Part shown: positions 54,006 through 54,154 of the stretch, piece by piece
How the letters are laid out: each line of letters begins with the position of its first letter
Numbering within the stretch: position 1 is the first letter of the stretch
Origin: Candidatus Omnitrophota bacterium
GTDB lineage: Bacteria; Omnitrophota; Gorgyraeia; Zapsychrales; Fredricksoniimonadaceae
NCBI GenBank assembly: GCA_044225175.1
Contig: JBGAJA010000001.1
Span: 422,711-486,710 of the forward strand
Reading direction: 5' to 3'
DNA length: 64,000 nt
The notes under the pieces: model-generated
What the model was told of the DNA's origin: nothing
Database searches by the model: none
What the model saw: the letters and a program-made list of their open reading frames with translations, nothing else
Program-made: the position numbers and the translations under genes

Positions 54006-54010
54006 AAAAA

Positions 54011-54029
54011 TTGGTACACATTGAATTAA
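54011..54029 (+). repeat. Intergenic module A copy 3 (variant TTGGTACACATTGAATTAA) with conserved 3' extension
   Basis: 54011-54052 aligns with 47293-47334. Confidence 0.7.
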
Positions 54030-54071
54030 TCCGTAAGCACTTTTAAACTTTATTACAAATGAGAGCTGCCC

Positions 54072-54092
54072 ATGCGAAATCTTCTTGTATAA
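54072..54092 (+). other. Vestigial paralog start: RBS-like GAGCTGCCC + ATG CGA AAT CTT CTT GTA TAA (M-R-N-L-L-V-stop), homologous to the MRNF/MRNL starts of paralogs 1 and 2
   Basis: Compare GTTGCCTATGCGAAATTTT (40783), GTTGCCCATGCGAAATTTG (47430), GCTGCCCATGCGAAATCTT (54063). Confidence 0.7.
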
Positions 54093-54116
54093 ATTCCGGT
54101 TCCACACGACGTAACC
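54092..54116 (+). repeat. Intergenic module B variant AATTCCGGTTCCACACGACGTAACC downstream of the fossil start
   Basis: Direct reading. Confidence 0.7.
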
Positions 54117-54154
54117 CGAATTCATGAATATTTAGTGGGAGCTAGGAGATAGGT

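Follow-up and report, generated by a model that had tools for sequence, protein, structure and literature searches.

The BC components of Tc toxins, for example TcdB2-TccC3 of Photorhabdus and YenB/YenC of Yersinia entomophaga, combine SpvB, FG-GAP, and TcdB_toxin_midN segments with an Rhs cocoon. At Rhs loci, copies of YD/Rhs-repeat toxin genes are gained, deleted, and left behind as vestiges, and a hypervariable tip beyond the core-end motif is classical in Rhs and TcC proteins (Jackson et al. 2009, BMC Genomics 10:584, PMC2935791). The classical rhs relics are "orphans" which consist of a partial core and a C-terminal tip, are accompanied in most cases by an immunity gene, and result from C-terminal displacement (Jackson et al. 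2009, PMC2935791).

The locus described here occupies 40.8 to 64 kb of a 64,000-nt stretch of a Candidatus Omnitrophota contig (referred to as the window) and holds at least four paralogous genes arranged head to tail (Table 1). It resembles Rhs loci in that toxin gene copies appear to have been gained, deleted, and left as vestiges, and in that 270 to 290 unrelated residues follow the core-end motif of paralogs 1 to 3. The relic it contains, in the spacer between paralogs 2 and 3, differs from the rhs orphans. It is composed of the start fragment from a 5' end and, as we read it, the last few codons of a gene, with neither a core fragment nor an immunity ORF.

The toxin gene array and its surroundings

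All four paralogs, each of about 2,150 aa, carry a signal peptide, an SpvB N-terminal domain, an FG-GAP repeat propeller, TcdB_toxin_midN, and the RHS repeats of an Rhs cocoon. The Pfam family RHS_repeat was matched with E values of 1e-33 to 1e-48. Judged by domain content, the architecture is that of a fused TcB/TcC-like or Rhs-type toxin. Domain order and the hypervariable C-terminal region are common to the Tc BC components and all four paralogs. In contrast to the former, B and C are here fused into a single polypeptide that carries a Sec-type signal peptide, at least four gene copies stand in tandem, and no TcA-like gene was present among the nine ORFs scanned upstream of the array (33.3 to 40.7 kb). 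Seven of these nine encode ATP synthase subunits, one encodes a protein with a prepilin-type N-terminal methylation motif, and one had no match. Directly upstream of the toxin genes lies a complete operon for an F-type ATP synthase, with genes for subunits a, b, delta, alpha, gamma, beta, and epsilon (33991-40287); a 134-aa ORF (40291-40695) without a Pfam match follows it. The GC content of the array equals that of the rest of the window.

Features of Rhs/YD-repeat polymorphic toxins were also present, including the core-end motif NNNPVNNIDP(S/T)GH, which precedes the variable C-terminal region. Past this motif, paralogs 1 to 3 are 16 to 30% identical. A further difference from the Tc BC components is that these regions had no Pfam match, even at E values of up to 1. 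For the C-terminal 173 aa of paralog 1, a search of 1.84 billion representative proteins gave no homolog at an E value of 0.001 or less. Each of the three regions (window 46378-47256, 53187-54002, and 59786-60631) begins with a long Gly/Ala-rich hydrophobic stretch. On the + strand, none of the spacers (179, 149, and 67 nt) contained an ORF of at least 30 aa, and no immunity-like ORF was located 3' of any paralog.

Table 1. Positions of genes, spacer modules, and start regions in the window, and of the core-end motif in the encoded proteins
Feature	Position	Strand	Remarks
Paralog 1	40792-47259	+	
Paralog 2	47439-54005	+	
Paralog 3	54155-60634	+	2159 aa, intact, TcB/TcC-fusion-like, own signal peptide and leader
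Paralog 4	from 60702, extends beyond window end	+	
Core-end motif NIDP(S/T)GH	aa 1856 (paralog 1), 1910 (paralog 2), 1871 (paralog 3)		
Paralog 1 upstream region and start	40761-40809	+	Intact reference copy, ATG 40792
Paralog 2 upstream region and start	47410-47456	+	Intact reference copy, ATG 47439
Sister spacer, paralogs 1-2	47246-47438	+	Paralog 1 tail ATAAATTCCG, TGA, B', A, B, A', RBS, paralog 2 start
Sister spacer modules	B' 47269-47280, A 47289-47334, B 47335-47359, A' 47382-47409	+	
Module A	54002-54053	+	Core TGG(G/T)ACACATTGAAT at 54012-54026, plus 3' extension
Vestigial RBS region and start	54054-54092	+	GAGAG, ATG 54072, five sense codons (MRNLLV), TAA 54090-54092
Module B	54088-54116	+	54092-54116 matches 47335-47359, 23/25
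Native short leader of paralog 3	54117-54154	+	Strong SD AGGAGA 54143-54148, 6 nt before ATG 54155

In paralogs 1 and 2, an in-frame TTG is located two codons before the ATG (TTG CCY ATG CGA; window 40786 and 47433), and mechanical ORF calling therefore puts the start at TTG. The ATG, from which the proteins would begin with MRN, is more likely to be the true start.

Paralogs 1 and 2 are unevenly related along their length. Their DNA identity is 66 to 86% at the 5' end, 37 to 53% in the FG-GAP region, and 90 to 99% in the distal Rhs core (45000-46400 versus 51800-53200), with 99% between 45598-45682 and 52410-52494. Identity remains at 90 to 100% through the distal core and drops to 16 to 31% directly past the core-end motif. 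The paralogs are therefore mosaics, a pattern consistent with gene conversion or partial duplication. The first-pass annotation had described these genes as evolving by segment exchange at both ends. The sharp transition at the core-end motif bears this out for the 3' end; for the 5' end, the spacer evidence given below indicates gene loss rather than replacement. Paralog 1 additionally contains a tandemly triplicated unit of 288 nt (window 41982-42828; 89% matches overall), each encoding two FG-GAP-like repeats. The second and third copies are 95% and 83% identical to the first, and the triplication, a recent internal expansion of the propeller, is absent from the other paralogs.

A vestigial start site upstream of paralog 3

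The 149-nt spacer 5' of paralog 3 holds the sequence ATG CGA AAT CTT CTT GTA TAA (54072-54092), which had been annotated as the fossil of a paralog start. It is a genuine relic of such a start, and every element of the description was found at the position assigned to it. When the 20-mer TGCCCATGCGAAATCTTCTT (54067-54086) was searched against both strands of the 64 kb with up to three mismatches, it matched only the starts of paralog 1 (two mismatches) and paralog 2 (three mismatches). The number of matches expected by chance was 0.01, and three hits were obtained in 0 of 100 shuffles. When 54036-54095 was aligned locally to the upstream and start regions of paralogs 2 and 1, the alignments covered 49 and 46 columns, respectively. 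The corresponding z scores of 10.9 and 8.7 are well above chance, and neither alignment score was equalled in any of 5,000 shuffles.

The homology reaches further than had been noted, since 54042-54091 is collinear with the upstream regions and first codons of paralogs 1 and 2. The 3' extension of module A, the RBS, and the start are contiguous in exactly the order found in front of these two genes, and the fossil together with its non-coding upstream flank is 80 to 86% identical to them. Alignment to the start region of paralog 3 itself revealed no detectable similarity. The TAA at codon 7 breaks the reading frame of the fossil, and no long + strand ORF joins it to paralog 3.

An independently assembled Logan contig (L001; SRR28480385) was identical base for base to window 52970-60869, and the spacer arrangement is therefore not an artefact of one assembly. 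This contig, the 20-mer counts, and the alignment shuffles exclude chance and misassembly as sources of the fossil. Assignment of the relic as an Rhs orphan fragment was rejected, because the spacer contains no partial core, core-end motif, or alternative tip. Neither Rhs core sequence nor a DPxG motif was found in its 149 nt, which hold start-proximal and stop-proximal bases only.

The fossil is bordered by two sequence modules, A and B, copies of which occur in the spacer between paralogs 1 and 2 (the sister spacer). Module A is the upstream flank of genes of the paralog 1/2 type. Its stretch 54007-54053 is 85% identical to 47289-47334 over 47 columns, and its 5' part (54002-54029) matches the second copy, A', at 26 of 28 positions. 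The module A core occurs only three times in the window; it is perfectly conserved between both copies in the sister spacer, and the third copy matches at 18 of 20 positions. In the sister spacer, A directly abuts B (47334/47335), without the 38-nt start fossil. The modules upstream of paralog 3 are thus as real as had been claimed, with 85 to 93% identity to their counterparts, and the spacers are indeed patchworks whose modules meet at sharp junctions. At 85 to 92%, the similarity between copies of A and B falls in the range of DNA identity between paralogs 1 and 2, which fits a duplication of both spacers along with these genes.

Several further observations were made at the spacer edges. 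The stop codon of paralog 2 (TAA, 54003-54005) falls inside the left edge of module A, where TTAAAAAAATTGG corresponds to TTAAAAAAACTGGG at 47382. Paralog 2 thus runs directly into module A at its 3' end and lacks a B-type tail, which suggests a further recombination junction here. Beyond the TAA of paralog 3, the same frame stays open for 15 more codons, up to the TAA of a GCGTAACC motif (window 60635-60684). This motif resembles the end of module B, which may be due to chance or may mark a former stop position. Three minus-strand ORFs of 57, 63, and 51 aa cross the spacers (53952-54125, 47233-47424, and 47195-47350, respectively) and share (L/I)IQCVP(V/I)F, the reverse complement of the module A core. 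They are probably spurious as genes, as protein conservation is absent outside module A.

Origin of the spacer remnant

The explanation that we favor, with roughly even confidence, is that 54054-54116 is a scar without function, left when a fifth paralog was lost between paralogs 2 and 3. It depends on the nature of module B. Read in the +1 phase relative to the fossil ATG, this module is TAT AAA TTC CGG TTC CAC ACG ACG TAA, or YKFRFHTT-stop. Its ATAAATTCCG (54089-54098) recurs at 47246-47255 as the final coding bases of paralog 1 before TGA, and this was the top match in the whole window apart from the copies of B themselves. The codon phase is identical in the two places (AAT AAA TTC CGC TGA at the end of paralog 1, TAT AAA TTC CGG in module B). 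Alignment of 54088-54128 to the tail of paralog 1 and the bases downstream (47245-47284) extended over 41 columns (P = 0.0075). In addition, B', a 12/12 copy of the first bases of module B, is located 10 nt 3' of the paralog 1 stop. Module B therefore seems to behave like the tail of a gene followed by the opening bases of a spacer, at a P value of about 0.01 for a comparison chosen post hoc. As a point against the scar, it should be noted that the case for module B as a gene tail consists of the 10-nt exact match and the 41-column alignment (P about 0.008), and that it was made post hoc.

B-like sequence after the stop of paralog 3 was weak and not significant (P = 0.17 to 0.44). No module B was found at the end of paralog 2, and the tail of this gene was rejected as a diverged unit of module B and adjoining sequence, the extension into it not being significant (P = 0.13 to 0.62). 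The equation of module B with a gene tail is thus not universal.

Since the terminal codons of paralog 1 recur in phase at the start of module B, the scar would join the first five codons of a gene to its last eight. Module B is out of phase with the fossil ATG, hence the immediate TAA. If module B is a gene tail, what is missing between it and the fossil is a whole gene body and not the front end of paralog 3. According to this proposal, a fifth gene of the paralog 1/2 lineage would formerly have been located between paralogs 2 and 3, with module A and a GTTGCC(C/T)ATGCGAAAT start in front and an end of the form ...(N/Y)KFR.... An illegitimate deletion of approximately 6.4 kb would then have fused codon 5-6 to the last eight codons, probably at an ATA/TATA microhomology that we take to have been present at both parental sites. 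The putative junction of the 5' and 3' remnants lies at about 54087-54091. Left behind would be module A, the RBS, the ATG with five codons, and YKFRFHTT-stop (module B), past which would follow the native leader, SD, and start of an independent, older-diverging paralog 3. The direct abutment of A and B in the sister spacer would be the same kind of scar: either a copy of the present one from which another 38 nt were later deleted between TTTAT and TGTAT repeats, or the product of a second independent loss. That both spacers have this right-hand junction counts against the proposal, as it requires shared ancestry of the scars or a recurrent breakpoint.

Ordinary pseudogene scars of tandem paralog arrays likewise show homology to the RBS and start of a functional paralog, a stop codon that follows at once out of frame, and sharp junctions with short microhomology. 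Nothing essential sets the present case apart from these; it is just small, with about 16 nt of 5' and 27 nt of 3' coding sequence left of a 6.5-kb gene. On this reading the scar is an ordinary pseudogene relic, one that probably lacks any present function. The feature had been described correctly in the first-pass annotation and its mechanism misassigned.

A gain of sequence in place of a loss is an unlikely but not far-fetched alternative. Approximately 90 nt, comprising module A, the RBS, and the first 15 to 20 coding bases of a gene of the paralog 1/2 type, would have been copied through illegitimate recombination, template switching, or a short conversion tract and placed between the paralog 2 end and module B. 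Module B would originally have stood at or after the stop of paralog 2 itself, and no gene would ever have been lost here. Such an insertion fits the position of the paralog 2 stop inside the left edge of module A (54002-54029) and the lack of a module B of its own in this gene. It also agrees with the TAT on both sides of the putative insert (53994-53996 and 54088-54090), although a 3-nt flanking repeat is trivial. If the insert is spliced out in silico, paralog 2 ends in ...KKNYKFRFHTT-stop, of which N(Y)KFR resembles the NKFR-stop of paralog 1; the homology into the paralog 2 tail, however, is the non-significant one reported above. A 12-nt direct repeat, AATTCCGGTGCC, flanks module A in the sister spacer and can likewise be cited for an insertion. 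Against this, the insertion of a promoter-proximal fragment is a more complex event than a deletion, and gene loss from a repeat unit of the form (tail-B)-x-(A-start) accounts more simply for the succession of A and B in two spacers.

The first-pass annotation itself had taken the fossil for the truncated ancestral start of paralog 3, onto which a new 5' region, comprising module B, the leader, the signal peptide, and the linker, had been grafted. The location of the fossil directly upstream of paralog 3 and the demonstrable mosaicism of the paralogs speak for such a graft, as does the leader of paralog 3, the most divergent of the four, with an insertion of about 35 aa. We nevertheless consider it improbable. 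Paralog 3 is equipped with a strong SD and an ATG of its own. Residues 3-49 of paralog 3 align to residues 10-57 of paralog 4 with one gap (E = 6e-7), and SEMVEPRT in the former matches SELVHPRT in the latter. A comparable motif follows the signal peptide in distant Omnitrophota homologs (AAPQSEMV at locus L006 and PQSNLVIPRA at L002). Being homologous to the leader of paralog 4 and sharing a motif with other Omnitrophota MAGs, the leader is typical of the family and not foreign. The stretch from CGTAACC of module B to the paralog 3 ATG is also weakly collinear with that from CGTAACC to the paralog 4 ATG (z = 2.0; P = 0.045), which weakly suggests that module B, leader, and paralog 3 behave as a native unit.

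Divergence of paralog 3 is not confined to its 5' end. Its leader is about 30% identical to the others, compared with about 60% among the other three; for SpvB, the corresponding values are 50 to 63% and 80 to 90%. The relative divergence calculated from these identities is approximately 2.3- to 2.5-fold in both regions. Identity to the others in the Rhs core is 45 to 65%. By these comparisons, paralog 3 stands as the outgroup from end to end, and no breakpoint was found downstream of which it becomes similar to paralogs 1 and 2. Its DNA is 34 to 70% identical to theirs, with about 60 to 70% in the best-conserved coding parts. The fossil, at 80 to 86%, exceeds any part of paralog 3, so that it is not the original start of this gene and, on these identities, belongs to the lineage of paralogs 1 and 2. 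The resemblance of module B to a gene tail is a further argument against the graft.

We regard it as still more improbable, and indeed highly so, that the 6-codon upstream ORF and module B are kept as a regulatory 5' untranslated region of paralog 3, for example for translation-coupled control, with module A serving as a promoter or operator common to the array. In favor of such a role are the conservation of the module A core described above, the position that module A would have upstream of paralog 3, and the ATG with a weak SD that is retained by the upstream ORF. The stop of this ORF, however, is 62 nt before the paralog 3 ATG, which leaves no translational coupling, and the sister spacer lacks such an ORF entirely. 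Features of a leader-peptide attenuator were not found: there is no terminator, the fold energy of 54040-54175 is not better than that of shuffled sequences (z = 0.06), hairpins in module B scored z values of only -0.2 to -0.9, and no Rfam family was matched. A sigma-70 consensus is absent from module A; a hand-read TTGAAT-17-TAAACT, which the scan did not call, agrees at only 8 of 12 positions, the spacing is wrong for sigma-54, and module A was rejected as a promoter.

Lastly, that modules A and B are not passive leftovers but cassette-boundary signals, short conserved sites at the 5' and 3' edge of every toxin gene for integron- or shufflon-like excision and insertion of whole paralogs, the A-B and A-start-B arrangements being empty sites after programmed excision, has very little to commend it, and if it were true, this Omnitrophota lineage would possess a switchable toxin repertoire.

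Relatives and meaning of the proposed scar

Comparison with orthologous loci, to which the first-pass annotation had looked for confirmation, could be carried out at a distance. A search of genome contigs with the N-terminal alignment retrieved 40 loci, nearly all from Omnitrophota or from MAGs labelled "Planctomycetales". None of them was close, the nearest relatives being only 49 to 58% identical at the protein level, and none of the 40 carried the start motif, module A, or module B. In other Omnitrophota MAGs (loci L002-L036), the homologous gene encodes 2,000 to 2,700 aa and is mostly alone at its locus, from which the tandem array of at least four copies looks lineage specific.

Protein searches gave a similar picture. 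Residues 1-400 of paralog 3 had only four distant matches, with 46% identity or less. The only exact match to the paralog 3 protein was in a Logan contig of the same strain, and paralogs 1 and 2 were not on record. The 134-aa ORF upstream of the array was matched exactly only in a sibling run, in which the contig ends at the edge of the array. Matches to the 16-mer TGCCYATGCGAAATYT in metagenomes were discarded, because all 120 of 120 loci were chance matches with unrelated flanks and a 16-mer is too unspecific. No relative with an intact gene between modules A and B was found in the genome, protein, Logan, and metagenome searches.

For annotators, the scar means that the spacer in front of paralog 3 carries a dead start site. 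It reveals no new mechanism and is a small addition to the natural history of a poorly known phylum, in an uncultured Omnitrophota host. If read correctly, it would indicate that this array of TcB/TcC-like secreted toxins turns over by the loss of whole genes, besides the swapping of C-terminal tips and conversion between copies.
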